This document shows positions 3,658-21,159 of a stretch of 32,000 nucleotides of DNA, piece by piece (positions within the stretch are counted from its first letter, which is position 1; each line of letters opens with the position of its first letter). This stretch comes from Pseudoalteromonas translucida KMM 520 (GTDB lineage: Bacteria; Pseudomonadota; Gammaproteobacteria; Enterobacterales; Alteromonadaceae): the NCBI RefSeq assembly GCF_001465295.1, contig NZ_CP011034.1, positions 2,790,001-2,822,000 on the forward strand, given 5' to 3'. The position numbers and the translations under genes are program-made. Below the pieces are notes generated by a model. That model did no database searches and was not told the DNA's origin. It saw nothing but the letters and a program-made list of their open reading frames with translations.

Positions 3658-4662
3658 ATGTTCAAGCAACTACAAGAAAAACATCAGCTTTCTATACTGC
3701 TTATACTCAGTATTGTGTCTGTATTTGGTATTACGCCATTTATTATTATTCGTTTTATAGAAAATAACATAGTCGCAGCGCTAATTGACTTAGCCATTGT
3801 AAGCGGTATTTTAACCTTGGTCGGTTATGCCCATTACACTAAAAAGCCGCGTGTTATTAGCGCCGTTATTGCATTGCTTGTTAATATTAGCGTTATCGCT
3901 ATTATAATTACCAACGGCATTAACAGCATGCTATGGATTTATCCGGTAGTAGCCGTTACGTTTTTTTTAGTAAAGCCAATAGAAGCACTCATACTCACCC
4001 TAAGCAATGTGGCAATTATTGCGAGCATACCTAATTTATTCGATGTTATACCGCTAAACTCTTACTTTACAACCAACTTAATGCTAGCTGCCTGTGCTTT
4101 TGTATATGCCTCTTTTGGCAACAAGCAGCTTGCTTTACTTGCAGAACTAAACAGTACAGATCCTTTAACTGGGGCATTAAATCGCCGTGCGCTTAACGAC
4201 GATACACTAGCCGCCATTTCGCGAGCAGAGCGTTATAACAGCACTTATTTATTAGCGTTTTTAGACTTAGACTTTTTCAAAAAGGTAAACGACGATTTCG
4301 GCCACGCCGAAGGAGACAGAGTACTAAAGCAGTTAGTGTCAATTACCAATTCACATATAAGAGAATCAGATAAGCTATACCGCTTTGGTGGCGAAGAGTT
4401 TGTGTTAATAATTCCCGAAATCCCGCCCAAAGAGCAAGTTAGCTTTATAAACAAGCTACGCGAAACAATAAAAAACGAGTTAAAAACACCTGCAGGTAAC
4501 TCAGTTACTGTATCTTTTGGTGTTGCAGCTTGGGTACCGGGCACCACAGTTGCTAGCTGGTTTAAACGCGCAGACGATGCTATGTATCAAGCAAAAGAAC
4601 AAGGCCGCGACTGCGCCGTATTTAGTAAAGATTCAAACTTTGAAATAAGTAAGCCAAACTAA
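3658..4662 (+). CDS. Membrane-anchored diguanylate cyclase (GGDEF domain)
   Basis: About 160 aa of N-terminal TM helices, then DPLTGALNRRAL...DLDFFKKVNDDFGH...RFGGEEF. An RxxD I-site (RESD) lies 5 residues upstream of GGEEF. Confidence 0.9.
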   Translation: MFKQLQEKHQLSILLILSIVSVFGITPFIIIRFIENNIVAALIDLAIVSGILTLVGYAHYTKKPRVISAVIALLVNISVIAIIITNGINSMLWIYPVVAVTFFLVKPIEALILTLSNVAIIASIPNLFDVIPLNSYFTTNLMLAACAFVYASFGNKQLALLAELNSTDPLTGALNRRALNDDTLAAISRAERYNSTYLLAFLDLDFFKKVNDDFGHAEGDRVLKQLVSITNSHIRESDKLYRFGGEEFVLIIPEIPPKEQVSFINKLRETIKNELKTPAGNSVTVSFGVAAWVPGTTVASWFKRADDAMYQAKEQGRDCAVFSKDSNFEISKPN

Positions 4663-4689: not shown

Positions 4690-5028
4690 TTATTTATCTT
4701 TGTTTAGCAGCGCCTTTAAATCGGCAAACGGATTATGTGTAGCCGCCACCACTTTTTGCTCTGTAGTACCGCCGTACAACACATATTCGTGATATTTATT
4801 ATGCTCATTATCATGGCAATAAATACACAATAACTCCCAGTTACTACCATCATCAGGGTTATTATTATGGTCATGATCAATATGATGCACCGTTAACTCT
4901 CGTAAATTAGAATACTCAAACTCACGAGCACAGCGCCCACATACCCAAGGGTACAATCTTAACGCTTTAATTCGATAACCTTCTTCTTGCCGCTGATAAG
5001 CCTGCATACCACTCGTGGTTTTACTCAT
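4690..5028 (-). CDS. yajD: HNH nuclease family protein YajD
   Basis: Near-collinear with E. coli YajD as I remember it (YPWVCGRC..REF.YSNLRELTVHHIDHDH.NNP.DGSNWELLC.YCHD.EH, C-terminal NPFADLKA). Confidence 0.9.
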   Translation of the reverse strand: MSKTTSGMQAYQRQEEGYRIKALRLYPWVCGRCAREFEYSNLRELTVHHIDHDHNNNPDDGSNWELLCIYCHDNEHNKYHEYVLYGGTTEQKVVAATHNPFADLKALLNKDK

Positions 5029-5187
5029 TAACTTATTACTACCGTCTTTTTACAATAAGCCCAGATTAGCCTTTAAAAATCACTTTGAATAGCGCCTTTT
5101 ATTTTAACCCTGTTGTTGCTCACCTAAAAGCTTGGGTATAATGAGCACTTATGGCTGTATTTGTTAGCCTACAACTTGGATAAAACA

Positions 5188-5496
5188 ATGAAAAAACTCT
5201 CTGCAGTGCAAATAAAACAGCAAGCGCTTGTCCTTAATATTGCCGATACACTCGAAAAACAAGGCCTAGCAGAGCTCCCTGGTATGCTGCAATGCTGGTT
5301 TGACGTTCAATATCACTTATTCCCTGGCTCCTTACTACTGTGCTTTCAATTTGACAGCGAGCAAGCCTTAGCTGCAGCAAAACCAGAGTTACTAAAATGG
5401 CAAAAACGCTTAAGCGCAGCCATGCTTAAAAAAGGCGTTATTTTAAAAGATATGCGTAAACATTTAGTATTTACATTAGAAGCACCCGATAGCTAA
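5188..5496 (+). CDS. Hypothetical protein
   Basis: The ORF track starts at a TTG (5161). The ATG at 5188 (MKKLSAVQIK...) is the more plausible start. No recognisable domain. Confidence 0.5.
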   Translation: MKKLSAVQIKQQALVLNIADTLEKQGLAELPGMLQCWFDVQYHLFPGSLLLCFQFDSEQALAAAKPELLKWQKRLSAAMLKKGVILKDMRKHLVFTLEAPDS

Positions 5497-5554
5497 ATCA
5501 GGTTTATTACCGAGGATAAAAATAAAAAGTAGATTCGGGGATTAAATCCCCCGG

Positions 5555-6169
5555 CTATAAAGTATAAAGCCCACGGGTGTTTTTAGCGTTTTCAAGATTA
5601 AACTGATTTACATGCTCAATCAGCTCTGGAAAAAATGCTAAAAACACAGCATTTAATTCATCATAATGCTTTGCTATATCATCAACAGCGCCAGTAAAGG
5701 TGTTAGTAAAGCGAATGCGTTTGGCTATATTATCAAGTGCTAGGCCCACCCCATCAAGGGTTTCGTACTCTTTAAACCAATCGTTATCGGTCATGTGTTT
5801 TACAACATGCTGCATTCGCGGCGGCATTACAGGCATACGCTTATCTAAAAGCGCAAAGCTAGTTTGTTTAAAGTCGTTTAATGGCTGTAGATTATATTTT
5901 TGCCAATGCATAATTAAAAAGTGATCAAACACCACATCAATAGCCACCCCTGCAAAACGCCTACGCTTAGGTGAAAAATACTGTTTAGCCTCTTTAACTA
6001 TAGGGTGAGAGTCAGTAAATTTATCTACCAAATAGTGATTATCGAGCGCATTTTTTACCGTTATAGGTACCTGGTTTAAATGCCGCTGACCACCAAAGTC
6101 GCCCAGCAAATTACCAAAGTGCGAATCGGCCGTAGGCTGTGCTAAATAAAGATGAGCTAAATAATTCAA
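5555..6169 (-). CDS. acpH: Acyl carrier protein phosphodiesterase
   Basis: The N-terminus MNYLAHLYLA...GNLLGDF... and DVVFDHFL match the AcpH family signature (E. coli MNFLAHLHLA...GNLLADF...DVMWDHFL). Length of 204 aa fits. Confidence 0.85.
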   Translation of the reverse strand: MNYLAHLYLAQPTADSHFGNLLGDFGGQRHLNQVPITVKNALDNHYLVDKFTDSHPIVKEAKQYFSPKRRRFAGVAIDVVFDHFLIMHWQKYNLQPLNDFKQTSFALLDKRMPVMPPRMQHVVKHMTDNDWFKEYETLDGVGLALDNIAKRIRFTNTFTGAVDDIAKHYDELNAVFLAFFPELIEHVNQFNLENAKNTRGLYTL

Positions 6170-6695
6170 CGTGTTCTCAGATTTGGTTAATACCGTTTAG
6201 ATAATAACGCAGTTGTAGATGAAATTCATACAAAGGAAAAGTGAAAGGCTTTAAGCTTCAAGGAAGTAATATTTTAGTTCGTGATTTTTTCAGCAATAAA
6301 ACACAGGCTCCTGCGCTCCCCATAAAAAAGACAACTACAAACCTGCTCCCCCTATCCAATTACAATTGTGTTTGATTAATTCAGTAAAGAGTCAGCCTTA
6401 TTTTGCTATCAATGTTGCTGTATTTTTCGGTACTGCATGAGTCATAAAACGCCTTGCTTAACCTTAACTATTAAACCTGAACTCTGGTTAAGAGATTCAC
6501 TTACGTATTGAATCATATTTATATTTAATTTTATTTTCTCTAGCCAGAGGTTTTCAGTGAAAACAAGGCTAATTTACGCGTCAATAGCTGGCCTATTGCA
6601 AGAAAACTCAACGCAGTTAGCGCTGAAAATAGCTGCTTGAGATAAGTTTATTATCCGAAGCTCAGGTTATTAAGCTCACAGAGGCACAACACGTT

Positions 6696-7067
6696 ATGAC
6701 AACTACTTTTTTAAGCCAATTACAGCAAGTCGCACTGCAACAAGCCCTTATCAGCACCAAGCTTCTAAACAGTTATACATTAAAGAGTAATAACGCACCA
6801 TCGCCCAAGCAACAAGCCTATAGCTTAATTGCTGTCGCGCTATACCGCTTTAATCTACAAAAAATAAAATGGTCATCTTTTTTAAAAACAGCCATAAATA
6901 CAGCAAACAACACATGCCAATGGTTAGCCACCGAACTTGTAAGGTGCCAACAAGACTATAAAGCCCAATCTCATGACACTGTAATTAGCGAACAAAGTGC
7001 ATTCATTAATGGTATTTTTAGCGAAGAACTCGTTTATATTGATGGTTTACTGGGGGTTGAAGCGTAA
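6696..7067 (+). CDS. Hypothetical protein
   Basis: 123-aa ORF after a 526-bp intergenic region. No recognisable motif, so coding status is uncertain. Confidence 0.4.
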   Translation: MTTTFLSQLQQVALQQALISTKLLNSYTLKSNNAPSPKQQAYSLIAVALYRFNLQKIKWSSFLKTAINTANNTCQWLATELVRCQQDYKAQSHDTVISEQSAFINGIFSEELVYIDGLLGVEA

Positions 7068-7101
7068 GCTAACTTAAGCTTATTAAAGCAATTATGTGAA
7101 C

Positions 7102-7139
7102 TGTCGGATGGCGCGACTGCGCCGCTTATCCGACCTACG
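7102..7139 (-). repeat. REP-like palindromic element (GTAGGTCGG head)
   Basis: The minus strand reads cGTAGGTCGGATaagcGGCGCagtcGCGCCATCCGAca, a nested palindrome closely resembling enterobacterial REP units. Its GTAG contains the antitoxin stop codon (7135-7137). Confidence 0.55.
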
Positions 7140-7419
7140 CTATTTGCGTTGTAAGGCGAAAGTTAAGTGCTTTCATCACTTTAAAAATAGTTTCCCAACG
7201 TGGTTTGGTTTTACCATTAACTGCTTTATATAAGCTTTCACGGTTTAACCCTGTTGCTTTAGCAATATCACTCACGCCATGCTTTTTAACTAATAAGCCA
7301 AGTGCTTCAATAAAGGTATTTGGATCATCATCAGCTAAACACTCTTCTAAAAATGTATTAATTTCTTGCTGTGTTTCCATATAATCAAACGGATTAAAAT
7401 CTGATGTTTGTAGCGCCAT
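7135..7419 (-). CDS. Addiction-module antidote protein (HigA-like HTH antitoxin)
   Basis: 94 aa with ...DDDPNTFIEALGLLVKKHGVSDIAKATGLNRESLYKAVNGKTKPRWETIFKVMKALNFRL, typical of the TIGR02684-type antidote family. It lies 5 bp downstream of the toxin gene. Confidence 0.85.
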   Translation of the reverse strand: MALQTSDFNPFDYMETQQEINTFLEECLADDDPNTFIEALGLLVKKHGVSDIAKATGLNRESLYKAVNGKTKPRWETIFKVMKALNFRLTTQIA

Positions 7420-7424
7420 AATAA

Positions 7425-7721
7425 TTACTCCAATTCACTTAAAAGGGCTTTTGCTTTGGTAATGTCTTTGCCTTGTGTGCCTTTGTGTCCACCATTGAGT
7501 AGTAAAATAACTTCACCGCCTCTAATTATGTAATAAACACGATAGCCTTTCCCTACGAAAATTCGCATTTCAAATATGCCACCACCAACAGATTCACTAT
7601 CGCCAAAGTTACCATTTATAGCACGTGTAATACGTTTAGCTATTGCCATAAAAGCTTGACGATCTTTGAGCTTTTTAAGCCATTTATCGAACTCGTCGGT
7701 TTTCTTAATACGATATTTCAT
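7425..7721 (-). CDS. Addiction-module killer protein (RelE/ParE superfamily, HigB-like; toxin gene first)
   Basis: FDKWLKKLKD...ITRAINGNFGDSESVGGGIFEMRIFVGKGYRVYYIIRGGEVILLLNGGHKGTQGKDITKAKALL matches the TIGR02683-type killer family. The ATG at 7721 is preferred over the TTG at 7739. Confidence 0.85.
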   Translation of the reverse strand: MKYRIKKTDEFDKWLKKLKDRQAFMAIAKRITRAINGNFGDSESVGGGIFEMRIFVGKGYRVYYIIRGGEVILLLNGGHKGTQGKDITKAKALLSELE

Positions 7722-7870
7722 AAAACAATTGTAGCCCAAAGGCTACATGCGTGCAATTTTATTTAAGGGATACCGAATTTTGATTTAACAATCAACGCGG
7801 CAGCAAGCTAAACGCCTACAATAAATAATACATACTCTTGGCTTTTAAGCGAGTAAGTATATTTGGGATT

Positions 7871-7903
7871 TGTTGGGTTTCGTTTCACTCAACCCAACCT
7901 ACG
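7871..7903 (-). repeat. REP-like palindromic element (GTAGGTTGG head)
   Basis: The minus strand reads cGTAGGTTGGGTTgagtgaaacgAAACCCAAca, a 7-8 bp stem directly after a GTAGG head. Confidence 0.45.
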
Positions 7904-7934
7904 TAAGCATTAAAATTACGAAAAACATACACAC

Positions 7935-7967
7935 AAAAAAGCCGTTGCAGCAATGCAACGGCTTTTT
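7935..7967. terminator. Bidirectional rho-independent terminator; probably the native gcvP terminator displaced by the island
   Basis: aaaaaa-gccgttgca-gcaa-tgcaacggc-ttttt. With the island removed in silico it would lie about 70 nt downstream of the gcvP stop. Confidence 0.65.
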
Positions 7968-8033
7968 AAATTTTTATAAATTCCCAAACTATAACGGGAC
8001 TTACTTACCATCAAAGATTAAAAATTATTAATC

Positions 8034-8038
8034 TCTGC
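8034..8038. repeat. Target-site duplication, left copy (TCTGC)
   Basis: TCTGC lies immediately outside the TGTCA terminus at 8039. An identical pentamer lies immediately outside the other terminus (18261-18265). Confidence 0.75.
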
Positions 8039-8174
8039 TGTCATGCTCTAATTAAGTTTGTGAATCGGCCTTTAAAAACAAAGAGCTACAACAAAACAAT
8101 ATTTCAATTAAGTTTGTGACTAGAAAGTAAACTCCACTCAATTTGTTCTTCTTAATTTTAATTAAGTTTGTGAC
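8039..8174 (+). repeat. Tn7L-like end: terminal TGTCA plus three spaced putative transposase-binding repeats
   Basis: AATTAAGTTTGTGA occurs at 8050-8063, 8106-8119 and 8160-8173, with 56 and 54 bp spacing. This resembles the three dispersed TnsB sites of Tn7L. Confidence 0.7.
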
Positions 8175-8287
8175 TAATTCACCGTATTAAAATTCAAGTT
8201 ATATTTTCTAATTGCTTGAATGTTAGCCTAAATACTTTATGATTAAATTTCATACAAATGTATAAGCTCAATAAAAGGATTTAAGTA

Positions 8288-8650
8288 ATGATTTCATTTT
8301 TAAGTTTATTTTTAGGTTTTGCATTAATAGGTCTAGTTTGTACTTTGTTTGGTGTAATTTTAAGCCTATTTATGGGGTTACTTGGATTAACTACAAAAAA
8401 ACTGAGTTTTTCTGACTCAGTAGAAGCATCAATGAGTTCACTTCAACCCGCTTTTATAACCGCAGCAATTCTAGTTATTCCTAGTTGTTTAACACTACTT
8501 AGGCCAGCAAGCGACATACCCGATTTTCTGTACTACGAAGATAGATTTGGTAAGAATAATGACACTACCAGCGGATTTTTCTTATTTATGTACATCTTTT
8601 CCGCTGTATTTATCATTTTATATATTTCAAAAATAAAGAGTTATTTTTAA
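8288..8650 (+). CDS. Small membrane protein (about 3 predicted TM helices), unknown function
   Basis: 120 aa with an AAGGA Shine-Dalgarno about 9 nt upstream of the ATG. Hydrophobic stretches lie at about residues 1-34, 54-70 and 96-113. It is 87 bp upstream of, and co-oriented with, the CARF-nuclease gene. Confidence 0.55.
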   Translation: MISFLSLFLGFALIGLVCTLFGVILSLFMGLLGLTTKKLSFSDSVEASMSSLQPAFITAAILVIPSCLTLLRPASDIPDFLYYEDRFGKNNDTTSGFFLFMYIFSAVFIILYISKIKSYF

Positions 8651-8737
8651 ATGTTGAGTTATTATTGATTACCTCACCATATCTTAAAAATATCATATTA
8701 AAATTCATAGTAATAATTCAAAAATATAGCGAATAAA

Positions 8738-9892
8738 ATGAAAACTAATACAAAGCAAGTGACACACATTTGTTTAATTGGAGAAGATCCAACAGCTAAT
8801 CTCACGCCCATTATTGATAAAGATATCCCTAGTGATAGAGTCATCATTGCTCATGAGAAGCATCAACAAGAGCAAGTTGAACAACTTAAAAAAGTGATTC
8901 AAACCAGAGGTTATAAAGTTGATAAATGGTTATTACCAACAACATTTAATACTGAAGAAATTAAATTAAATTTCATGCAACTATTTGAACAAGAGAACAC
9001 TCACCCAAGTGATACTTGGCTAAATGCGAGCAATGGTTCTCGCTATCAAATACTGGCCGCATATGAGGTCGCAAGAGCGTATGATTCCAAAATTTATATT
9101 GTTGAACCAAAATACGATGCACTATGTTGGCTCTCACCTGAAAATAGAGAAATGACACCCGTTGCTGATAAAATTAAATTACATGAATTCCTTTCTGTTA
9201 ATGGCTTTACTTTAACATCACAACAAAATAAGAATGGAGTATCTCTCGACCTAAGAGCAATAGGCGAAAACTGGCTAAAGCAAGCAGATAAACTACAAAC
9301 AGGACTAGCTAAACTTAATTACCTTGCACAATTTACCCATGGCGATACTTTTATAGGCAAGGAGCAAGATATTGCAATGCTAAATGATGAATCATTACAG
9401 TGGTTACTTAATGATTTAGAAATTTTAGATCTAATTAAAGTTGATGGTAAATCTGTACACTTTCAAAATGAAAAAACGCGTTTTTTTGCTAACGGTGGTT
9501 GGCTTGAAGAAATCACATTTAGCTATATCCGTAGTTTAAGTAGTGAAATACCTGAGCTACAAGATAATGGCCATAGTGTTGAAATTGAACGTTCAATCAA
9601 TGGAAAAACAATTAAAAATGAATTAGATGTTGTTGCGCTAGTAAACAACAAGCTTCATGTTATTGAATGTAAAACTAAAAAATTTAAAAATGGAGAAGGC
9701 TCCAACATGCTATATAAAATAGACTCGCTAGCTGAACGTTTAGGGGGATTAAAATGCAAGGCAGCCCTTGTCACTTTTTTTCCATTAAACAAAAGTGAAC
9801 TAGCAAGGGCAAACGAGCTTAATATCGAAATTTTTGTCGGAACAAGCTTGAAGCTTTTAAAGAACAACATCAAAAACTGGCTACAAAAATAA
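8738..9892 (+). CDS. CARF-domain plus PD-(D/E)xK nuclease, Card1/Can2-like (DUF1887-type) putative cyclic-oligonucleotide-activated effector
   Basis: The N-terminal Rossmann-like region begins VTHICLIGEDP and carries the CARF signature (D/N)x(S/T)xxx(R/K) as N96-A-S-N-G-S-R102. The C-terminal region has GGWLEE (253-258) then ELD297...VIE310-C-K312, which is a PD-(D/E)xK motif. Confidence 0.65.
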   Translation: MKTNTKQVTHICLIGEDPTANLTPIIDKDIPSDRVIIAHEKHQQEQVEQLKKVIQTRGYKVDKWLLPTTFNTEEIKLNFMQLFEQENTHPSDTWLNASNGSRYQILAAYEVARAYDSKIYIVEPKYDALCWLSPENREMTPVADKIKLHEFLSVNGFTLTSQQNKNGVSLDLRAIGENWLKQADKLQTGLAKLNYLAQFTHGDTFIGKEQDIAMLNDESLQWLLNDLEILDLIKVDGKSVHFQNEKTRFFANGGWLEEITFSYIRSLSSEIPELQDNGHSVEIERSINGKTIKNELDVVALVNNKLHVIECKTKKFKNGEGSNMLYKIDSLAERLGGLKCKAALVTFFPLNKSELARANELNIEIFVGTSLKLLKNNIKNWLQK

Positions 9893-9944
9893 AGCTAGAT
9901 AGTCCCCCTAAAAATAGGTTTATTTATATAAGGACTGTAGTAAC

Positions 9945-12900
9945 TTAGACTTTTTCCTCAGTTCCATATATAGAGGCTGGTAAATCAAATATTTTATTAA
10001 ACATAGATAAAAATGTTCTATTTTTCCTTGGGTCACTATCAAATAATTTTGAATTACAAAAGATTACCTCATCATTCTCACCAAAAAATATATCTAAGTC
10101 TGAGTATGCATCGTTTGTAAATTGAATTATCTCTCGTTGTTCAAAATATCTAATATCTATATCTTCTACAATCTTTGACTTTTCAAATATTGTTATTCGT
10201 CTCAAGTAAACATTATTCTGCAATTCCTTAACTAATGTCCCATTATTTGATAATAATAAAGACTTATTTATTGCTGAAGAGCGCATCACGGCCCAACTAT
10301 TTGAAGCTCCTAACCATAAATCACCATCCCATTCAATCTTCTGGTCTTCATGCACAGTATCGATACGTGATGAGCGAGGATTGGTATCTTTCCAATTTTT
10401 AGACGTTGGAAAAAACAAATGCATACAGTCCCCAATATAATGTGCACCTCTAGCTGTAGCTTTTCTTATTTTTGGGGATTGATTGCGATCATATAAGATG
10501 CTGACTAATAAGAACCTACCTTTCCAGTAGTCTCTAAAATTAGGGCTGCCATCTTCAGAGGTAACTGCATTATACAATTGTATTGGTAACAAATTATTAG
10601 CAATTTTCACTTCTAAATTTGAATTTGGAATAAATAATTTCACACCTGAACTATCAACTTCAGTTACTTGAACTACAACAAAGTCTCCTGTAACGCATGA
10701 GCTATTATCTAAATTGAATAAAGATAGCACTTGCAGTATTTCTTGAAAAATTTCATCATCTCCTTCAAAAACATTAAGACTAAATTTCTCAACCGCGTTA
10801 CGGATTAAATCATTTTGAGAATCTAACACTTCCCTTTTATTTTGGTTTGATAATATTTTATTATTTAAGTTTTCAATTACTTCAAGAATATACTTTCTTT
10901 TAATTTTATTTGATATTTCGGTACAAAGGTGGGATTTAGGTACACTTTTACAAAATGCTAGACCACTAAACAGAACTCGAATTTTTCGATGGGATTTTAA
11001 TTTATCATTTATATTTTGAGTATCAATATATGAAATTATAGACAATAAGTAATTTGAAAATAGTAAGTAAACTTCATCACTAATGCTTGTATTAGCCAAC
11101 TCCTTAACATACTTAGCCATATTAGTAAGAGTTATGAGACAAGTTGGCCATTTAAGTTCAGCTAAAGGCATTTCTTTAATTATTATGACAATATTATTGA
11201 CCTCACTAGGGTCTATTTCTTGAATCACATCCAGTGTAGAAATCACTTTATTAAACTCTCCATCTCCAAGATAGTTTATGAATCTTCCTGTAAGTTTAAG
11301 AGAACTCCTCCACTCCTCAATTAAATTGCTATCACTTAAATTAAAGTGATTAGACCTTATATTTAAAATCCAATAGGTAAGAGTTCTTGCTTTATACCAA
11401 GCTATAACTCCATTAAATTCATTATCATCTGCTATATTTTTTTTTGACAATAAATCAAGGAAAGGCTGAAGAATCTCGCCCTCACACTTTTGAATGGTTA
11501 TTGTATTTGGCGCGACTTGAAAATTCTTGGACGCAAGTGAGCTAGATAGCTTTCTTAGCACCTTTGCAACTTGAATATACTCTTTAGTATCAGAGAATTG
11601 ATACGAATTGAGAGTTTGTAATAAACTGTGCCATTTAATGTTTAACTCTTCTAAATCAATAAGGTTCCTATTTGAATATAGTCTAGATAATTCATGAAAT
11701 ACGATGGAGTGTAGCTCTATTTTTTCATTTTTATCTATAGTGACAATACGATTAGATTGAGTATTGTCACTTATAACATTCCACTTTTGTAATCTATCGT
11801 TTAAAGAGGTAACACTATTAAAGACTTCAACTATTAGGCTTAAGTTTAAAGGCACATTTTTGTTATGCGGTATATCTGAAAACAGTCCTAATTCATCATT
11901 GTAAGAATATGCATATCGGTATTTATTTATTTCTGTCTTTAATCGTGAACGAATATCAGATAAAGCGGCTCTAACTTTTAAATCAATATACCTAATGTTA
12001 CCAAAAACAGAAAAGTATTCGACTATATTGGCAAGCCCACGTATCAATTCATTTAAATTATCAGCTCCAACCATATCTCTTATATAAGTAGGTTTCTCAT
12101 TTGTCTGCCTTATAAAAAACAGTAAAAAAATTTCAAAGGACTTCTTGTTAATACTATCGAATTCCAAGCATTCATTTTTATCTAAAAGCTTTGTTTTATT
12201 AATCCAATTTAATAATCCAGTAATTTCACTAACTGACCAATATCCAACATCAAATTCTCTAAGATAAGCTGCACTTTTAAAACAATCTAAAGCTAGTGAA
12301 ATATTTCTCATAAATAAATGACTATTGCTTTCATTATTCTCACATGTCGACAATATCGGTTTTACATGCCTATATATTACTTCTAGATCATTCCGTATAA
12401 TTTTGTATAAATCATCTGATTCAGATACTAAAGATTTAACATGATCTTTTAATACTAAATAACGCTCCTGGTGTTCATCTGTTATGACATAAAGCATCGT
12501 CCCTCGTTTCGCTAGTTTTTCAAAAGGCTCTACCCTCTCTTCATCAAGGTAATACCACTCAGATTCAGATATCTTATCAAAACAAGCTAATATATATATT
12601 GATTGTTTAACCTTCCGTTCATCCCCCATGCCTATAAATAATCGTTCACAGGCTCCATTGTATTTTTTTATTTTTTCTGTAACATATTTTTCTATCAGCT
12701 CTTTTTGATTACTTGCATTAGTGTTTATAACTTCAGGAATACTTAATAACTCTTCAAACGATCTATTCTTAAATAAATTTAAAAGAAACCAACATCTCTC
12801 TCTAGTAGAGTTTGGCAACCTCATTATTTTTCCATTTGGTCCGTTACATAAGAAACTGGCTATTTTCTTTATTTGGACCTGTTTAAATGAATCTCTATTA

Positions 12901-13087
12901 GTAATTTTAAAGTCTACAACTTTAGACTTCAGAAATTTTTTTATTTCTAATAATGCGCTATCTGAATTAAGTGAATTATTTTGTTCCCACTCATGAATTA
13001 CATTAGCCACAAACCCTATTGATTCTAACTCTTCCAAACTCCCTATTTCAAATGGTCGTTTCAAACCTGCGAGAATATATTCGGGTT
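9945..13087 (-). CDS. Large ORFan protein (over 1000 aa), 5' end abutting or disrupted by the IS; unknown function
   Basis: A 3.1-kb uninterrupted ORF in AT-rich DNA, which is unlikely by chance. The first 8 codons of the tracked ORF (GTG at 13112, MAKITVPL) are encoded by the IS left inverted repeat, so the native start is unknown. No Walker A, DDE or other motif was seen by eye. Confidence 0.6.
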
Positions 13088-13163
13088 GTAGTGGTACAGT
13101 GATTTTGGCCACCCATTAAGAAAGAAATGTTATGCTAATAAGCATACAAATTTGGGTGAAAAA

Positions 13164-14344
<1,181 letters not shown>

Positions 14345-14347
14345 CCA

Positions 14348-15154
14348 CTACAAAAGGAATAGTTTTTGAGACAAATCGAGTTTTAATATGCGGTGTAAAG
14401 CAACATGCTTGAATATGGTTTGACTACGTTTAAAGTCTAATGACATTACTTTGCCAGTATTTAAGATGTGCTTTTTCAATGATGCGAAAGGATTTCCTAC
14501 CCAGAAATCTTCAAATATTTCAACAAACTCAAGTTTTTCACTATCTGAAACAATGGCAGTAGCCTCAGTAGTAAACCAATCTATATTCCAAGCAAGTTCT
14601 TTGGTGGCATCTTGCTCAGTAATTACAGAATAATCGCCAACATGCTCTTCACTGTAAACTTGTTCTATATGAAATTTTTGCCAAACTCGATAGTGTTTTT
14701 CCTGTTGGCTGCCATCTTCATCGACTACCCATATTTGATCCGAATACTTAAATGAATAAGTTGATTTCGTAACTTCTCCAGTACTAAAATCAACTGTATG
14801 AGCAACCAAGTCGCTCGACATAACATGAGCAGTATTAGTCTCCCAATTTCGAGGGTGGATGTAGCCAAGCTCTTCCGCTATTGCTAGATTTTCGTTAAGG
14901 TCTAATGGTACTTGCTCATCAATTTGAATAGTTTCAGGACGCCACATCAATATTTTATACGCTCGCCTTTCACCATCACTGAGCAAATGAACTTTTCGTT
15001 TTTGTTTAGGACATTTATGTAAGTGACGTCTACCTACCTTGTTAACCTGTTTAACAGTGACCCAAGGAATATGAATATCCTCGCTAGCAGCAAGTGCTTC
15101 GTTCCACTTTTCAATTTTTGCTATAACTTCTTCGGTAATTACTGGCTGTTTCAT
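14348..15154 (-). CDS. tnsA: Tn7-type transposition protein TnsA (endonuclease); the 3' end runs into the IS
   Basis: Collinear with Tn7 TnsA as I remember it: IHIPWVTVKQV..GRRH......KVHLLSDGERRAY...IDEQVPL...IAEELGYIHP...VMSSDLV...YSFKYS, versus DYIPWLTVQEV..GRSH...RVHHLLSDLELAVF..IREQFPL..IAIDSGIKHP..VMSTDFLV..IQVKP. The catalytic E/D/K equivalents are present (E66, D119, K140 in ORF-track numbering). The final Leu codon and the TAG stop are supplied by the IS right end. Confidence 0.8.
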   Translation of the reverse strand: MKQPVITEEVIAKIEKWNEALAASEDIHIPWVTVKQVNKVGRRHLHKCPKQKRKVHLLSDGERRAYKILMWRPETIQIDEQVPLDLNENLAIAEELGYIHPRNWETNTAHVMSSDLVAHTVDFSTGEVTKSTYSFKYSDQIWVVDEDGSQQEKHYRVWQKFHIEQVYSEEHVGDYSVITEQDATKELAWNIDWFTTEATAIVSDSEKLEFVEIFEDFWVGNPFASLKKHILNTGKVMSLDFKRSQTIFKHVALHRILKLDLSQKLFLL

Positions 15155-15155
15155 C

Positions 15156-15515
15156 TTAATCACCAATGATTGAGCGTAATAAAGTGAGTGGAAGTCGGGA
15201 AGCTTGTTTCGGTGTGAGTTTAGGATCGAAACGAGCTTGTATAGATAAATGGTGCAACAATGATAGGATTTTTATTAGTGCGGGATACTTTGTAGCGCTT
15301 GCTGGGATGACTATATACCCCACATTGTTGATGTGAACTAATGTCTCAAGCTTATTAGCTAATACTGATATTCCCCCTCTGCTAGCCAATTTCGGTATTG
15401 ATATGTACTTTACAACTAAGCAGTGAGAGTTTAATGCGTCAATGCAAAACCCTTTGATGGTTGAAAACGACTCAGCTTTCAGTTTTAAATTTATCTTACG
15501 TTGATTTGATTTCAT
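15156..15515 (-). CDS. Hypothetical 119-aa protein, translationally coupled to tnsA
   Basis: Its TAA stop (15156-15158) is separated by 1 nt from the tnsA ATG (15152-15154). No recognisable motif. Confidence 0.5.
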   Translation of the reverse strand: MKSNQRKINLKLKAESFSTIKGFCIDALNSHCLVVKYISIPKLASRGGISVLANKLETLVHINNVGYIVIPASATKYPALIKILSLLHHLSIQARFDPKLTPKQASRLPLTLLRSIIGD

Positions 15516-15914
15516 TTTAACCTAGCTAATTTAGAGTTCATTAAAAAATTATTAGCTATAAAAATTAAAAAATCAAGAACGCTCTAGAGGCAAACCACTG
15601 ATTTAAAAGGAATTAATGCACATTAAAATATATAGATATTATAATATTTATTAATTTTTAGAATTGGAACTCATTGATATTTAGGGCAGTTTTATTCAAA
15701 TATTTTTGGAGATATTTTAAGGTAAATTATTGTTACTATGCTGGAGTGGTCTTTTTGAGCTTTGAAAATAAATTTAATTATTTTTGTTTTTTAGGAAGAA
15801 AACATAAGAAACGGCTAAATTCTCCTATTTTCGTGATGATAAATCTGATTTTTAGAGTTAGTTCGTAGTTGAGTACTTTTCTACCATTAAGTACGAACTA
15901 CTATACAATCTGAT

Positions 15915-16838
15915 TTATTTCCTTTTACTTAGATAGTTAGATAAATCAAACTTCTTTCTAGGGTCAATAGTATATATGTTGGTATCTGGCCAAAGTTCTT
16001 TTGCTGCATTTATATTGGGAAAGGGATCAATTAAAAAAATACGAGTTATGTTCTTACCTTTTATTTTTAAGAATTCAAGCAAGGCTTTATCATATTGATT
16101 AAAAGCAAACCCAAATAAAATTAAACTTTTGCTATCTAACAGTATTTCCCCACCAAGAGACCAGACGTCTTCAAGTTCAGTTGGTGGTGTTTTTTCTGGA
16201 ACTGGTGGAATAATTAAAGATTTACCAGCTCGACCAGGCTTTCCGCTTGTATATTTAATGTCTCTTTCCCAAGAAAGAGACCCGTGCAATTTAGCTAATG
16301 GAATTTTACCTGTTACGTGAACATGTGCGTTTTGCCATGGAAATTGGGGGTTTAACCCTCTTCCATACAGTTGCTCGCCAACGACCCCATAATTAAAGCC
16401 TGAAGTACCTAAAGCACACTCCACTAATGTATCGTAATTACAAGTAATAATCCCTTTTAAGCCGTATTGGTTTAATGACAATAAAAACTGATTTAGTTTA
16501 ATTATTTTATCGTTTTCTCTTACCGCTCTCTCATCAAACATAGCGGAAGTATATGAGCCACTAATTCTTGTCATGAATGGCTCTGTAAGCCTTCTATTAA
16601 CATACCAAATAACTCTGCTTCGCCTATGGGAAGATTTATTCATACACCAATAAATAAAACGTTCAGGGGAGTTGTCTAAGTTATCTTTTAGCCAATTAAC
16701 CCAATCAGACTTCAGTAGCTCTAGCTTCCTTTGCTCAGAGTTATTTATAGTGTTGATATTAAAATCGAAAAGCTGATTTACCAATGGTAGTTCAAATGCC
16801 CATTTAGAAAATCCAGCTCCTAGAAATAAAGCTGTCAT
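15915..16838 (-). CDS. SIR2-like (SIR2_2-type) predicted NAD+-binding or NAD+-hydrolysing protein
   Basis: The N-terminal LFLGAGFS glycine motif, IITCN134YDTLVE and LAKLH185GSLSW match the defence-type SIR2 signature (Asn/His catalytic pair as in ThsA/DSR). 307 aa, with no fused sensor domain. Confidence 0.7.
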   Translation of the reverse strand: MTALFLGAGFSKWAFELPLVNQLFDFNINTINNSEQRKLELLKSDWVNWLKDNLDNSPERFIYWCMNKSSHRRSRVIWYVNRRLTEPFMTRISGSYTSAMFDERAVRENDKIIKLNQFLLSLNQYGLKGIITCNYDTLVECALGTSGFNYGVVGEQLYGRGLNPQFPWQNAHVHVTGKIPLAKLHGSLSWERDIKYTSGKPGRAGKSLIIPPVPEKTPPTELEDVWSLGGEILLDSKSLILFGFAFNQYDKALLEFLKIKGKNITRIFLIDPFPNINAAKELWPDTNIYTIDPRKKFDLSNYLSKRK

Positions 16839-18031
16839 TTATTTTTCTTCATGTTATTAGGTAACGCTTTTTGTAACCAATTTGGCTGCTTTAACCTTTC
16901 AATAAACCATTCAATGAAAGCAACTGAATATCTTGGTCTATCAGTTAAATCAAAATATTCTGCTTTATTCTTTATTTTGTGTTTTTTAACAACAGCTCTA
17001 AAAGAATAATTATTAATAATGCAGTCTGCTTGTCTCTCGTTGATTTCTTTTATTGCAGTAGTTTCATAAAAAGGATGCGTAATCTTTAAGTTCTTCGGAC
17101 GATCAACAAAAACAGTATGTTTACCATCAGGACCAGTGCCAAAAGTCAAATCTTCAGATCCTGGTTTTTTAGTAAGTGCCAACTTATACTCAATATGAAT
17201 AGCAAAACGATTAGAGTTATGTTTTTGTTCAAGTTTTTTGAATTTTTTTAAAAATTCATTTACTTGGCTGGCTGTTTTCTTTCCGTACTCTTCTTTAACC
17301 AATGCAATGTCTGGTTCTGGGCCATCAATAACCAAACTCAACATCCCTACGTTTTGATCTGCCAATGGAGCATAACCTTCTTGATGAGCAAACTCTTCTT
17401 GATAAAGCAAAACAGTGGTTTGAAATAGCCTAGATAACTGGGGCTGAATCTCAGGTAATAGAAGATGAATAGCATCATTTCTTAAAGATATTAGCTGATT
17501 TAAATTATCTTTATCTGCACTATCATTTGGATATTTAAAATTAACAGCTTCGCTTAAAGGTATGCTTTTGCCATCTTGGTCTATTAATGAGTCAAACCCC
17601 TTAGCTTTCAAAATTTGTGATTTTAATAAAAGCTCCCAAGCATTAGTCATCATAATGGCGAATGCTTCGACCCTATTTTCCAAACTTGGTCTGTTGTATA
17701 CCTCTAAAGCAACAGTAAATGCATTCAAACTTCTCTTGATAAGTTTGTAATACAGTTTTTCGTCATCTGTTAATATTTTAGCTTGTGTACTTTGCGAGGT
17801 AATCCTAATAAAATCATTATCACTAATAGCCAATAGACCTTTGCAATACCAATTTGGTCTTTTGTCTTGAAAAATATATTTACCTTTTAAGCTCTCACTT
17901 ACCAATTTTTGAATGTAATTGACTTTATTGCCAGTTGCTAGCGCTGCTTCAGCATATGTAAAAGAAAGTTTTTTTCTTTCTTTATCCCGAAAGAAGCTTA
18001 AAACTATAATTCGCTTATCTTGCTTTACCAT
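16835..18031 (-). CDS. DUF3644-like protein (N-terminal helical domain) with an uncharacterised C-terminal half
   Basis: The motif FTVALEVYNRPSLENRVEAFAIMMTNAWELLLKS is what I associate with DUF3644 (from memory). AAGGA Shine-Dalgarno about 9 nt upstream. The stop overlaps the SIR2 start (ATGA at 16835-16838). Confidence 0.6.
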   Translation of the reverse strand: MVKQDKRIIVLSFFRDKERKKLSFTYAEAALATGNKVNYIQKLVSESLKGKYIFQDKRPNWYCKGLLAISDNDFIRITSQSTQAKILTDDEKLYYKLIKRSLNAFTVALEVYNRPSLENRVEAFAIMMTNAWELLLKSQILKAKGFDSLIDQDGKSIPLSEAVNFKYPNDSADKDNLNQLISLRNDAIHLLLPEIQPQLSRLFQTTVLLYQEEFAHQEGYAPLADQNVGMLSLVIDGPEPDIALVKEEYGKKTASQVNEFLKKFKKLEQKHNSNRFAIHIEYKLALTKKPGSEDLTFGTGPDGKHTVFVDRPKNLKITHPFYETTAIKEINERQADCIINNYSFRAVVKKHKIKNKAEYFDLTDRPRYSVAFIEWFIERLKQPNWLQKALPNNMKKNK

Positions 18032-18095
18032 GAGTCTCTATCCTTGAGCATAAATGCTGGTATATGAGGAACTTCAAATTTGAGTAATACTTAAG

Positions 18096-18125
18096 ATTAT
18101 AAAGTTAAAACAATCTTACAAACAA
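18096..18125 (-). promoter_or_regulatory. Candidate sigma70 promoter for the DUF3644-SIR2 operon
   Basis: On the minus strand: TTGTTT (18125-18120), an 18-nt spacer, then a perfect TATAAT (18101-18096), about 65 nt upstream of the ATG at 18031. Confidence 0.3.
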
Positions 18126-18153
18126 CGTTAAAGAAAAAACTTTATATCAGATA

Positions 18154-18184
18154 CAAAAAAGGTGAGCATTTAGCTCACCTTTTA
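18154..18184 (-). terminator. Rho-independent terminator just inside the Tn7R-like end
   Basis: The minus strand reads aaaaggtgagc-taaat-gctcacctttt followed by tttg. It is placed to stop read-through from gcvP into the element. Confidence 0.55.
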
Positions 18185-18195
18185 GTCAATTCTGA

Positions 18196-18260
18196 GTCAC
18201 AAACTTAATTCAATTCACAAGCTCTATTGCAAGAGTCACAAACTTAATTGAAAGTTGACA
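18196..18260 (-). repeat. Tn7R-like end: terminal TGTCA plus three closely packed putative transposase-binding repeats
   Basis: gTCACAAACTTAATT occurs at 18196-18210 and 18235-18249. A degenerate copy, tTCACAAGCTCTATT, lies at 18214-18228. All are inverted relative to the left-end repeats, and the terminus ...GTTGACA ends at 18260. Confidence 0.7.
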
Positions 18261-18265
18261 TCTGC
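18261..18265. repeat. Target-site duplication, right copy (TCTGC)
   Basis: It directly abuts the element terminus. The gcvP stop codon (18268-18270) is 2 bp further on. Confidence 0.75.
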
Positions 18266-18267
18266 TC

Positions 18268-21159
18268 TTAATCGCGGTATGTCTCAACCGGTGGGCAAGC
18301 ACACACTAAGTTGCGGTCGCCGTATACGTCGTCAATACGTGTTACGGTTGGCCAAAACTTGTTTTTAGCCACTGCAGGCACTGGGAATGCAGCGTAAAAA
18401 CGGTCGTATGCACGATCCCATTCGTTACCTAACACGTCGCCTTGGGTGTGCGGTGCAAACACTAACGGGTTGTTTTCGATTGACCATTCGCCAGAGATTA
18501 CTTTGTCGATTTCGCTCTTAATTGACACCATTGCTTCAATGAAGCGGTCGATCTCAACCTTAGACTCAGACTCGGTAGGCTCTATCATTAACGTGCCCGC
18601 TACTGGGAACGACATAGTAGGTGAATGGAAGCCGTAGTCTTGTAGGCGTTTAGCTACGTCCATTTCAGTAATGCCCGACAACTCTTTAAGCGGACGCAAG
18701 TCAACAATACATTCGTGCGCAACGCGGTTGTTACGGCCACGGTATAAAATTGGGAAGTGCTTGCTTAGCTCATGCGTTAAGTAGTTAGCATTTACAATTG
18801 CCATTTCAGTGGCTTGTTTTAAGCCCTCTGAGCCCATCATGGTAATGTAAGCCCACGAAATAGGTAAAATAGACGCTGAACCATATGGCGCTGCCGATAC
18901 CGCTCCGTTACCTTCGTTAGTACCTGGTACGTTAATAATGCTGTGGTTAGGCATAAATGGCGCAAGGTGCGATTTAACACCAATTGGGCCAACACCTGGG
19001 CCACCGCCACCGTGTGGAATACAAAAGGTTTTATGCAAGTTTAAGTGCGATACGTCTGAGCCAATAAAGCCTGGGCTAGTTACGCCAACTTGCGCGTTCA
19101 TGTTTGCGCCGTCCATGTAAACTTGGCCGCCGTGCTGATGAATAATGTCGCAAATTTCACGAATTGTTTCTTCGTATACGCCGTGTGTAGATGGGTAAGT
19201 GATCATAATACACGATAAGTTTTCGGCTACTGCTTCTGCTTTCGCTTTAAGATCGGCCATGTCTACGTTACCGTTTTTATCACAATCAACAACCACAATT
19301 TTCATGCTGGCCATTTGTGCCGACGCTGGGTTAGTACCATGCGCTGAACTTGGAATTAAACATACGTTACGGTGTGCATCCCCGCGTGACTCGTGGTATT
19401 TACGAATGGCGATTAAGCCTGCGTATTCACCTTGAGCACCTGAGTTAGGTTGCAATGAAACCGCATCGTAACCGGTAATATTTACCAACCAATCATGCAG
19501 TTCGCCCATCATAATTTGATAGCCCTGTGCTTGATCTAGCGGACAAAATGGGTGCAAGTTTGAAAATTCAGGCCAAGTAATTGGGATCATCTCAGCGGTC
19601 GCGTTTAGTTTCATGGTACATGAACCTAACGAGATCATTGAGTGGTTAAGCGCTAAATCTTTGTTTTCTAGGCGCTTAATATAACGCAGCATTTCAGTTT
19701 CGCTGTGGTACGAATTAAAGTTAGGGTGCGTTAATACTTCATCATCACGCTCTAAGCTTGCTGGAATTGACGTGCTGCCATTGTTTTCAATATCGGCTGC
19801 AATTGCATCAACACTTAGGCCATGGCCTTCGCCTAATACAATATCAAATAACTGCGCTACGTCTGCACGTGTGGTGGTTTCTGATACGGCAATTGAGTAT
19901 TCGCCATCGCGGTTAGTGGCAAAGTTAACACCGCTTGCCAGTGCACGCGCAATAACGTCGGCTTTGCTATCGCTTACTACCGTTAGGGTATCAAACCAAG
20001 TGTTGTGTTTAAGGCTCACGCCTTTAGCTTGTAAGCCTGCTGCTAAAATATCGGCAAAGCGATGAATGCGCTGAGCAATGGTTTTTAAGCCTTGTGGGCC
20101 ATGGTACACAGCGTAAAACGCTGCCATGTTGGCCAGTAATACTTGCGCGGTACAAATGTTTGAGTTGGCTTTGTCGCGGCGAATGTGTTGCTCACGCGTT
20201 TGCATTGCCATACGCAGTGCGTCGTTACCTAAACGGTCTTTAGATACACCAATAATACGACCTGGTAATGAACGTTTGTACGCGTCACGTGTTGCAAAAA
20301 ATGCAGCATGTGGGCCACCGTAACCCATAGGTACACCAAAACGCTGCGCCGAACCTAATACTACGTCTGCGCCTAATTTACCCGGTGCTTTTAATAGTAA
20401 TAAACTCATAATGTCGGCAGCAACACAAGCAATTGCCTTTTTGCTTTGTACGCCAGCAATTAGGTCGGTAATGTCTACCACTTCACCAGTTGTTGATGGG
20501 TATTGAAATAACGCGCCAAAAATCTCATGGTTAACAGCGTCGGCAGCTTTGCCTACAATTATTTCAAAACCAAACTGCTCGGCGCGAGTGCTTACTACGT
20601 CAATTGTTTGTGTGTGTACGTCGTCGGCAATAAAAAATGCATTGGCTTTTTTCGCTTTAGACACACGCTTTGCAAGACCCATAGCCTCTGCAGCAGCGGT
20701 TGATTCGTCAAGTAACGATGCACTTGCTAAATCTAGGCCGGTTAAATCTAGGGTCATAGTTTGAAAGTTAAGTAACGACTCTAAACGCCCTTGCGCTATC
20801 TCTGGCTGATATGGAGTGTACGCAGTATACCAACCTGGGTTTTCTAGTACATTACGTAAAATTACGTGCGGTACATGTGTTGGGTGGTAGCCTTGGCCAA
20901 TATACGATTTGAAAACTTTATTTTTGCTTGCTACTGATTTTAAGTAGCTTAGTGTTTCAACTTCGGTGCGGCTTTCGCCCACGGTTAAAGGCTGCTCAAG
21001 GCGAATACCTGCAGGTACAGTTTGACCGATCAGCTCTTCAACACTCGATACTTCAAGCGCGCTAAGCATATCGCTTACTTGCGCTGGGCTTGGCCCAATA
21101 TGGCGGCGAATAAAATCTTGCGTTTGCTCTAACTGCTCAAGAGATTTGGCGTTTGACAT
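18268..21159 (-). CDS. gcvP: Glycine dehydrogenase (decarboxylating), glycine cleavage system P protein
   Basis: 963 aa, the single-chain P-protein length. Hallmark segments include [19 protein letters not shown], and the PLP-lysine context [18 protein letters not shown]. Confidence 0.95.

Follow-up and report, generated by a model that had tools for sequence, protein, structure and literature searches.

An orphan VC1899-type CARF nuclease in a decayed Tn7-like element at gcvP of Pseudoalteromonas translucida KMM 520

A CARF nuclease gene carried by a Tn7-like element was analysed in the chromosome of Pseudoalteromonas translucida KMM 520 (NZ_CP011034.1, positions 2,790,001 to 2,822,000; the whole stretch of 32,000 nucleotides is referred to as the window). 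The product of the gene at 8738-9892 is an intact protein of the DUF1887 (Can2/Card1) family and is of the VC1899 type. The best explanation of the locus, to which we assign a probability of about 0.6, is that of an intact, ligand-gated orphan nuclease which stands last in a module at the left end of a decayed Tn7-like element, the module having lost its ATPase gene. As a protein of the VC1899 branch it is an orphan CARF nuclease of an already known kind, and the window gene adds one more member to that branch.

The nuclease and its CARF pocket

The gene and its two domains are located as follows.

8738-9892, plus strand: VC1899-type nuclease of the Can2/Card1 family, 384 amino acids (aa), identified by profile, PDB and structure matches
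about aa 8-150 (nt 8759-9187): CARF domain of the nuclease
aa 245-382 (nt 9470-9883): PD-(D/E)xK domain of the nuclease

The translated product is PTRA_a2969 of P. translucida KMM 520 (100% match), and the motifs listed in the original prediction, made from the sequence alone, are found at the expected positions: NASNGSR at aa 96-102, GGWLEE at 253-258, ELD at 295-297 and E310-C-K312. The Card1/Can2 architecture proposed there, a CARF domain joined to a restriction-endonuclease fold, was confirmed. Pfam Card1_endonuc (PF09002) matches aa 245-382 (E 1.1e-34), the PADLOC profile CARF4--CARF_PDDEXK covers the full length (E 6.7e-112), and the PDB sequence search gave full-length matches to VC1899 (1XMX, E 5.3e-69) and Can2 (7BDV, E 1.2e-32). 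The AlphaFold model (predicted local distance difference test, pLDDT, 90.8; predicted template modelling score, pTM, 0.86) has a template modelling (TM) score of 0.90 with 1XMX, 0.76-0.85 with SthCan2, 0.82 with Cdn1 and about 0.69 with Card1, and Can1 was also matched.

Residues of both domains are strongly conserved. Among 90 family members the positions H10, P24, D27, N96, S98, G100, R/K102, E123, P124, D127, W131 and D144 of the CARF domain are invariant or nearly so, and the same is true of E257, E295, D297, E310 and K312 in the nuclease domain. The active site, predicted to be apparently intact, is thus complete in E295, D297, E310 and K312. The pocket of the CARF domain is of a particular type. 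In the alignments the residues S19, T42, K99 and Y118, with which SthCan2 contacts cyclic tetra-adenylate (cA4), correspond to G15, E40, R102 and I121 in the window nuclease; the basic residue alone is kept and three of the four contacts are replaced, leaving a pocket that is acidic or hydrophobic where Can2 has its cA4 contacts. The residues H10, D17, D27, E123, P124, D127 and W131 are common to the window nuclease and the Vibrionaceae orthologues. Pairwise ratios of nonsynonymous to synonymous substitution rates (dN/dS) among the close relatives, the window copy included, are 0.07-0.11, which indicates purifying selection, and pairs with the window copy give 0.08-0.11. The retained CARF residues together with the low dN/dS therefore indicate a conserved pocket, of a type unlike that of the characterised cA4 binders.

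The closest studied relative is VC1899, an orphan CARF protein without association to type III CRISPR; it lacks the residues with which Can2 holds cA4 (S19, T42, K99 and Y118), its RNase activity is weak and not regulated by cA4, and it does not nick DNA (Zhu et al. 2021, PMC7969007). Relatives of the window nuclease were found in 465 species-representative genomes, mostly as solitary chromosomal genes, and the neighbourhoods of the best 80 of these 465 were surveyed. Most of the 80 loci hold a solitary nuclease in housekeeping synteny: the Photobacterium, Aliivibrio and Vibrio orthologues have conserved, housekeeping-looking neighbours, while the copies in Kangiellaceae, Alteromonas and a Beggiatoa metagenome-assembled genome are lone genes amid metabolic genes (an EPSP-synthase-family gene, gltX, an amidohydrolase gene). 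Solitary copies in all these lineages make the orphan CARF nuclease of the VC1899 branch the rule and no novelty. No nuclease homologues were found in plasmid and phage collections. Genes of about 430 aa upstream of the nuclease in three of the loci (L003, L006 and L068) were considered as divergent ATPase partners and rejected, being an amidohydrolase, a DUF2130 protein and a dehydrogenase-like protein.

The left-end module and the ATPase family

The close relatives, whose nucleases are 83-89% identical to that of the window, comprise two Thalassotalea genomes (L001 and L002), a Shewanella contig (L087), the metagenome contigs L081-L085, and L086. Their nuclease genes all lie just inside the same transposon left end where the contig reaches that far, and a homologue of the small membrane protein orf120 (69-91% identity) is encoded upstream of the nuclease in every one whose contig extends to that point. 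The contig of L086 begins within the ATPase gene, so that the orf120 position and the left end are not visible there. The corresponding part of the window has two features.

8288-8650, plus strand: orf120, first gene of the module, a small membrane protein (120 aa) with 3-4 hydrophobic helices (hydropathy segments aa 1-37, 52-74 and 92-117)
8651-8737: 87-bp spacer in place of the ATPase gene (homology to L002/L001 ends at 8657 and resumes at 8719/8757)

The relatives L001, L002, L081, L085 and L087 carry, between orf120 and the nuclease, a gene for a soluble VirD4/TraG-like ATPase of 507-515 aa, the 3' part of which is also present in L086. Its Pfam matches are T4SS-DNA_transf (E 3.7e-57), TrwB_AAD_bind and TraG-D_C, its Walker A and Walker B motifs are invariant, and no hydrophobic or membrane segment was found by hydropathy. 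Of the neighbouring genes examined in the related loci, none was recognised as a conjugation gene. The complete module thus has the order 120-aa membrane protein, ATPase of about 510 aa and nuclease, and is situated inside the left end of gcvP-targeting Tn7-like elements. The ATPase gene is absent from the window, where tblastn found no trace of it.

A second ATPase-less lineage was obtained from three metagenome samples (L082-84). Its spacer differs from that of the window, being 152 bp long and still containing a 3' fragment of the ATPase gene of about 90 nt. The neighbour-joining tree, which is distance-based and carries no support values, places the window beside L001 and the L082-84 sequences beside L085/86. 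This topology implies that the ATPase gene was lost twice, and two independent losses are accordingly what the sequences suggest. The nearest relative also differs along the module. The left end and orf120 of the window are 90% identical to L002 and 72% to L001, whereas the nuclease gene is 86% identical to L001 and 82% to L002. Since the nearest relative of orf120 is L002 and that of the nuclease is L001/L085, recombination within the module is indicated.

For orf120 no family match was obtained in Pfam, PADLOC or NCBIfam, and no enzyme-like domain was seen; its dN/dS is 0.07-0.17. The original prediction had named this 3-TM protein as a candidate partner that makes the signal. It is indeed a conserved neighbour, but the lack of an enzyme domain gives no support to a role in signal synthesis. 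Nor did the proposal of a partner within the island hold as worded, because the recurrent partner is the VirD4/TraG-like ATPase that the window lacks. Of the two neighbours whose co-occurrence with the nuclease had been proposed for a survey, orf120 recurs and the family of the 1055-aa open reading frame (ORF) downstream does so only in L085/L086.

The VirD4/TraG-like ATPase family is large, comprising at least 1967 proteins at E <= 1e-10, and several of its members are found next to other effectors. In Alteromonas gilva (L173:10001-21566, the same locus as L088) the gene of an ATPase 56% identical to that of Thalassotalea stands ahead of those for a VC1899-type nuclease (identity with the window nuclease 42%; 1XMX E 1.8e-68) and a DUF1874 ring nuclease resembling AcrIII-1/Crn2, after which come an 11-repeat CRISPR array, cas2, a reverse transcriptase (RT)-cas1 fusion, a RAMP gene and Cas10/Cmr2. 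Two partial loci are similar in kind: the VC1899-type gene of Neiella litorisoli adjoins Cas6 and RAMP genes, and that of Paraglaciecola sp. 20A4 lies beside a RAMP gene and a weak, sub-threshold match to the Cas10 palm. All three nucleases have the VC1899-type pocket, so that this pocket type is compatible with type III surroundings. Downstream of the closest metagenomic ATPase (58% identity) lies a gene for a Csx16-TM-CARF protein, and another ATPase of the family is encoded near an RT-Cas1 fusion and a nuclease that keeps a Can2-like S/S/K/Y quartet. Further partners, seen in the metagenome loci L089-L172 and in L090-L092, are an NYN protein with a 2013-aa NACHT protein, a patatin and Cas_NE0113, and an unannotated gene of about 250 aa is often found upstream of the family ATPase. 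These neighbourhoods make the ATPase a modular companion to a range of effectors, in several cases CARF proteins, and the family with its varied effectors looks like an undescribed modular conflict system. In the literature searched there was no relevant paper that ties DUF1887 or CARF to Tn7, VirD4 or TraG, or that describes the association with the ATPase.

Decay of the Tn7-like element

The nuclease had been predicted to be cargo of a Tn7-like island, and the ends, the target-site duplication and a TnsA homologue were all found. The element occupies 8039-18260 (10,222 bp) with termini 5'-TGTCA...TGACA-3'. Its features, and the gene at which it is inserted, are listed in order.

8034-8038 (left) and 18261-18265 (right): 5-bp target-site duplication TCTGC, read directly
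8039-8176: Tn7-like left end, with the TGTCA terminus and copies of the end motif at 8050, 8102 and 8156
9945-13086, minus strand: 1055-aa ORF, remnant of a cargo gene of about 1380 aa (aligned to the L085 protein)
13087-14352, plus strand: IS3-family insertion sequence (Pfam HTH_Tnp_1 and rve; inverted repeats; ends TGTAGTGG...CCACTACA)
14353-15166, minus strand: tnsA homologue, orf272 (PDB Tn7 TnsA 1T0F/1F1Z, E 7e-9, aa 29-203; weak Pfam Tn7_TnsA-like_N)
15915-16838, minus strand: SIR2-like gene (Pfam SIR2_2; weak PADLOC SIR2 matches)
16835-18031, minus strand: DUF3644 gene (Pfam DUF3644; PADLOC candidate PDC-S19, E 6.9e-60)
18194-18260: Tn7-like right end, with two inverted motif copies and the TGACA terminus
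18268-21159, minus strand: gcvP, with the attachment site at its 3' end (Pfam GDC-P, E 4.8e-191)

The end motif of about 20 nt, TTTCAATTAAGTTTGTGACT, is present in three copies on the left and two inverted copies on the right. The boundary of homology with eight related loci falls at 8037-8039, and the right end lies 2 nt from the gcvP stop codon (18268-18270). The GC content is 0.29-0.34 within the element and 0.39-0.45 outside. Related elements adjoin gcvP in both Thalassotalea genomes, and the transposons of these two cultured strains are decayed as well. About 100 bp left of the left end of the L002 element there is a 92-bp stretch resembling a right end (L002:7546-7634), a sign that elements may stand in tandem, or persist as remnants, at gcvP.

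The metagenomic relatives L081, L085 and L086 carry TnsB, a TnsC-like AAA_22 ATPase, TniQ and TniQ/TnsD. In the window no match to tnsB, tnsC, tniQ or tnsD was obtained by tblastn with the L085/L086 proteins, and the only rve-domain protein is that of the IS3. The IS3 occupies the place of these genes, and the last tnsA codons extend into its end. It has replaced tnsB, tnsC, tniQ and tnsD together with the 5' quarter of the adjoining cargo gene; no target duplication was seen when the ends at its flanks were read. With the transposition genes missing, the window element is immobile unless helped in trans.

The 1055-aa ORF, called an ORFan and a possible source of a messenger in the original prediction, is a decapitated P-loop NTPase gene of which the IS3 removed the first ~344 codons, and it is no candidate for a synthase. 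It corresponds to residues 345-1382 of the 1382-aa L085/L086 protein with 55% identity. The family is rare, with only 34 representatives (P0194-P0227) in an exhaustive HMMER search of 1.84 billion proteins. Its long members have about 1250-1530 aa, most of them with a Walker A motif at residues 29-89 that the ORF lacks, and a conserved C-terminal domain of about 120-200 aa is found in other architectures too. No Pfam, PADLOC, NCBIfam or PDB match was obtained for the ORF, and a word-index homologue search with the 1382-aa relative returned itself alone. The possibility that orf272 and the 1055-aa ORF are one gene split by the insertion sequence was rejected, orf272 being TnsA and having no similarity to the missing N-terminus. 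Downstream of the nuclease in L082 (10472-18854) are the genes for a 1172-aa AAA_11/AAA_12 helicase (PADLOC MkoA-like, E 2e-40) and for a protein of 1599 aa that is similar to the 1382-aa family at the C-terminus.

About 3 kb of cargo (15156-18031) lies between the right end and tnsA and consists of orf119, the SIR2-like gene and the DUF3644 gene. Tn7-like elements normally have no cargo in this position. Neither the SIR2-like nor the DUF3644 gene is present in any of the related loci, which leaves the suggested NAD-derived ligand from SIR2 without support.

The absence of cas genes and CRISPR arrays from the 32 kb, as predicted, was confirmed. The accompanying statement that no nucleotide cyclase is nearby has to be modified, since a GGDEF diguanylate cyclase is encoded at 3658-4662; it lies outside the element, and nothing ties it to the nuclease. 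Just beyond the left end of the transposon there is a pair of genes resembling a toxin-antitoxin system (Gp49/HigB-like and HI1420/HigA-like helix-turn-helix, 7135-7739), and an unannotated 123-aa ORF (orf123) is located at 6696-7067. Pfam and PADLOC gave nothing for orf123 or orf119, and NCBIfam gave no match to any island protein. Rfam had no match over 5000-19000, a tRNA scan found no genes, and the promoter scan scored no better than shuffled sequences.

Mechanism, rival explanations and related systems

By analogy with Can2/Card1 the nuclease would work in the form of a homodimer. Its conserved CARF pocket would bind a small ligand, probably derived from a nucleotide, and this would position the two PD-(D/E)xK domains for metal-dependent cutting of DNA, RNA or both, with arrest of the cell or of an invading element as the outcome. 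cA4 is probably not the ligand, because three of the four contacts are replaced and VC1899 is not regulated by cA4, and we infer that nothing encoded on the element makes the ligand. The solitary Vibrionaceae orthologues and the second ATPase-less lineage indicate that such a nuclease can persist without the ATPase, although the window copy may be impaired.

Some observations weigh against this explanation. The VC1899-type gene of A. gilva stands in a bona fide type III context, counter to a purely orphan view of the branch, and with type III loci beside same-pocket relatives (complete in A. gilva, partial in Neiella and Paraglaciecola) a product of Cas10 is still a possible signal. The direct sequence evidence for an ATPase deletion in the window is thin, consisting only of some 20 similar nucleotides ahead of the start codon, and the deduction is mainly phylogenetic. 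The nuclease could also be a displaced type III accessory that answers to cyclic oligoadenylate or another Cas10 product from a system elsewhere in the genome. The eavesdropping on such a system that the original prediction had considered gains some plausibility from the type III neighbours of VC1899-type relatives. It agrees with the invariant N-x-S-x-G-x-R/K of the CARF domain, with the relatives of 41-44% identity that have the same pocket type and adjoin type III genes, with the AcrIII-1-like ring nuclease in the A. gilva operon, and with the pairing of the ATPase family with Csx16-TM-CARF and with the nuclease of the Can2-like quartet by the RT-Cas1 fusion. However, neither the 32 kb nor, as far as can be seen, the related transposon loci contain a cas gene or an array, most of the 80 loci are solitary with housekeeping synteny, and the changed contacts as well as the behaviour of VC1899 (PMC7969007) speak against cA4. 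An accessory origin of this kind is therefore considered unlikely. P. translucida KMM 520 is described as carrying a type I-F3 CRISPR-associated transposon, in a paper that does not mention type III (PMC8464060).

The full-length ORF, in which all catalytic and pocket residues are intact, and the dN/dS of 0.08-0.11 likewise make it quite unlikely that the gene is a functionless leftover pending decay in a dead transposon, even though its ATPase gene is missing, tnsB, tnsC, tniQ and tnsD are gone, the adjoining gene is truncated by the IS3 and both cultured Thalassotalea elements have decayed as well. An independent ATPase-less lineage with the same protein occurs in at least three metagenome samples, and the solitary orthologues are stable in many genera. 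A messenger made within the island, be it by the 1055-aa protein, by the 3-TM protein or as an NAD-derived product of SIR2, has only physical proximity in its favour and the constancy of orf120 as a neighbour. The 1055-aa ORF is N-terminally truncated and of a rare family that accompanies the nuclease in L085/L086 alone, no enzyme-like domain is seen in orf120, none of the related loci has SIR2 or DUF3644, and DUF3644 matches the separate candidate system PDC-S19. Such a messenger is thus extremely improbable, and largely refuted by the co-occurrence data. The original prediction had regarded the partner and NAD readings as undescribed biology; both are unsupported, and orphans of the VC1899 branch were described before (PMC7969007).

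A bolder proposal, speculative and rather improbable, is that membrane protein, VirD4/TraG-like ATPase and VC1899-type nuclease form the operon of a self-contained, undescribed conflict module. The CARF domain would then be governed by the ATPase, or by some ligand that is not cA4, in place of Cas10, the target would perhaps be conjugative or phage DNA, and the two-gene remnant in the window would be active. In a wider version the ATPase family would be a general, unrecognised partner of CARF effectors (Card1-type nucleases, Csx16-TM-CARF, Cas_NE0113) and also of NYN and patatin effectors.

Returning to the orphan CARF nucleases of the VC1899 type, their role is a question that has stood since the 1XMX structure of 2004 and the cA4 result of 2021. 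Three handles on it are now given: a recurrent genetic partner in the form of the soluble VirD4/TraG-like ATPase and the small membrane protein, a mobile form that is always placed at the same end of Tn7-like transposons directed to gcvP, and same-pocket VC1899-type genes directly beside type III CRISPR loci. Together they open the question of ligand and partner to experiment. The new lead of ATPase and membrane protein comes from the related loci and not from the window, the copy in which is a reduced and possibly impaired example.

Comparison with known systems places the element among Tn7-like transposons with defence cargo, with which it shares TGT/ACA ends, internal motif repeats, a 5-bp duplication, TnsA and site-specific insertion past a conserved gene; it differs in using the 3' end of gcvP for attachment and in the loss of tnsB, tnsC and tniQ. 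The ATPase of the relatives resembles the type IV coupling proteins VirD4, TraG and TrwB in its T4SS-DNA_transf/TrwB-type P-loop domain, but it has no N-terminal membrane anchor, and the genes examined alongside it included no recognised conjugation apparatus. Defence pairs of a hexameric FtsK/HerA-type ATPase with an effector are known, such as HerA-SIR2 and HerA-DUF4297. We take the likeness to these to be that an ATPase of the same broad P-loop superfamily is encoded with a swappable effector, and the difference to be, presumably, that the ATPase of the relatives is of the VirD4/TraG/TrwB type, lacks an anchor and has a separate small membrane protein ahead of it. The A. gilva operon has the gene order of ATPase and nuclease found in the Thalassotalea module; it differs in being chromosomal, in adjoining a type III locus and in having a ring nuclease, and no gene resembling orf120 was recognised in it. 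The window differs from A. gilva in turn by having no ATPase, ring nuclease, CRISPR array or cas genes.

The cA4-activated ancillary nucleases of type III CRISPR, Can2 (SthCan2, 7BDV; TsuCan2) and Card1 (6WXW/6XL1), have in common with the window nuclease the family PF09002 and a CARF domain, the fold (TM 0.69-0.85), the catalytic E/D...ExK residues and the CARF motif NxSxGx(R/K). They are set apart by the changed cA4 contacts, by the 32 kb without Cas10 or a CRISPR array, and by the lack of cA4 regulation in the closest studied relative (PMC7969007). That relative, VC1899 of Vibrio cholerae (1XMX), the founding member of DUF1887, is like the window nuclease in its two-domain architecture with homology over the full length, in a pocket type without the Ser, Thr and Tyr contacts of Can2, and in having no cas genes nearby. 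The identity between the two is only about 35-39%. VC1899 and its orthologues in Vibrionaceae stand alone on the chromosome, with synteny conserved around them, whereas the window copy belongs to the mobile cargo of a transposon, lies at its end and has a gene for a small membrane protein ahead of it, to which an ATPase gene is added in most of its close relatives.

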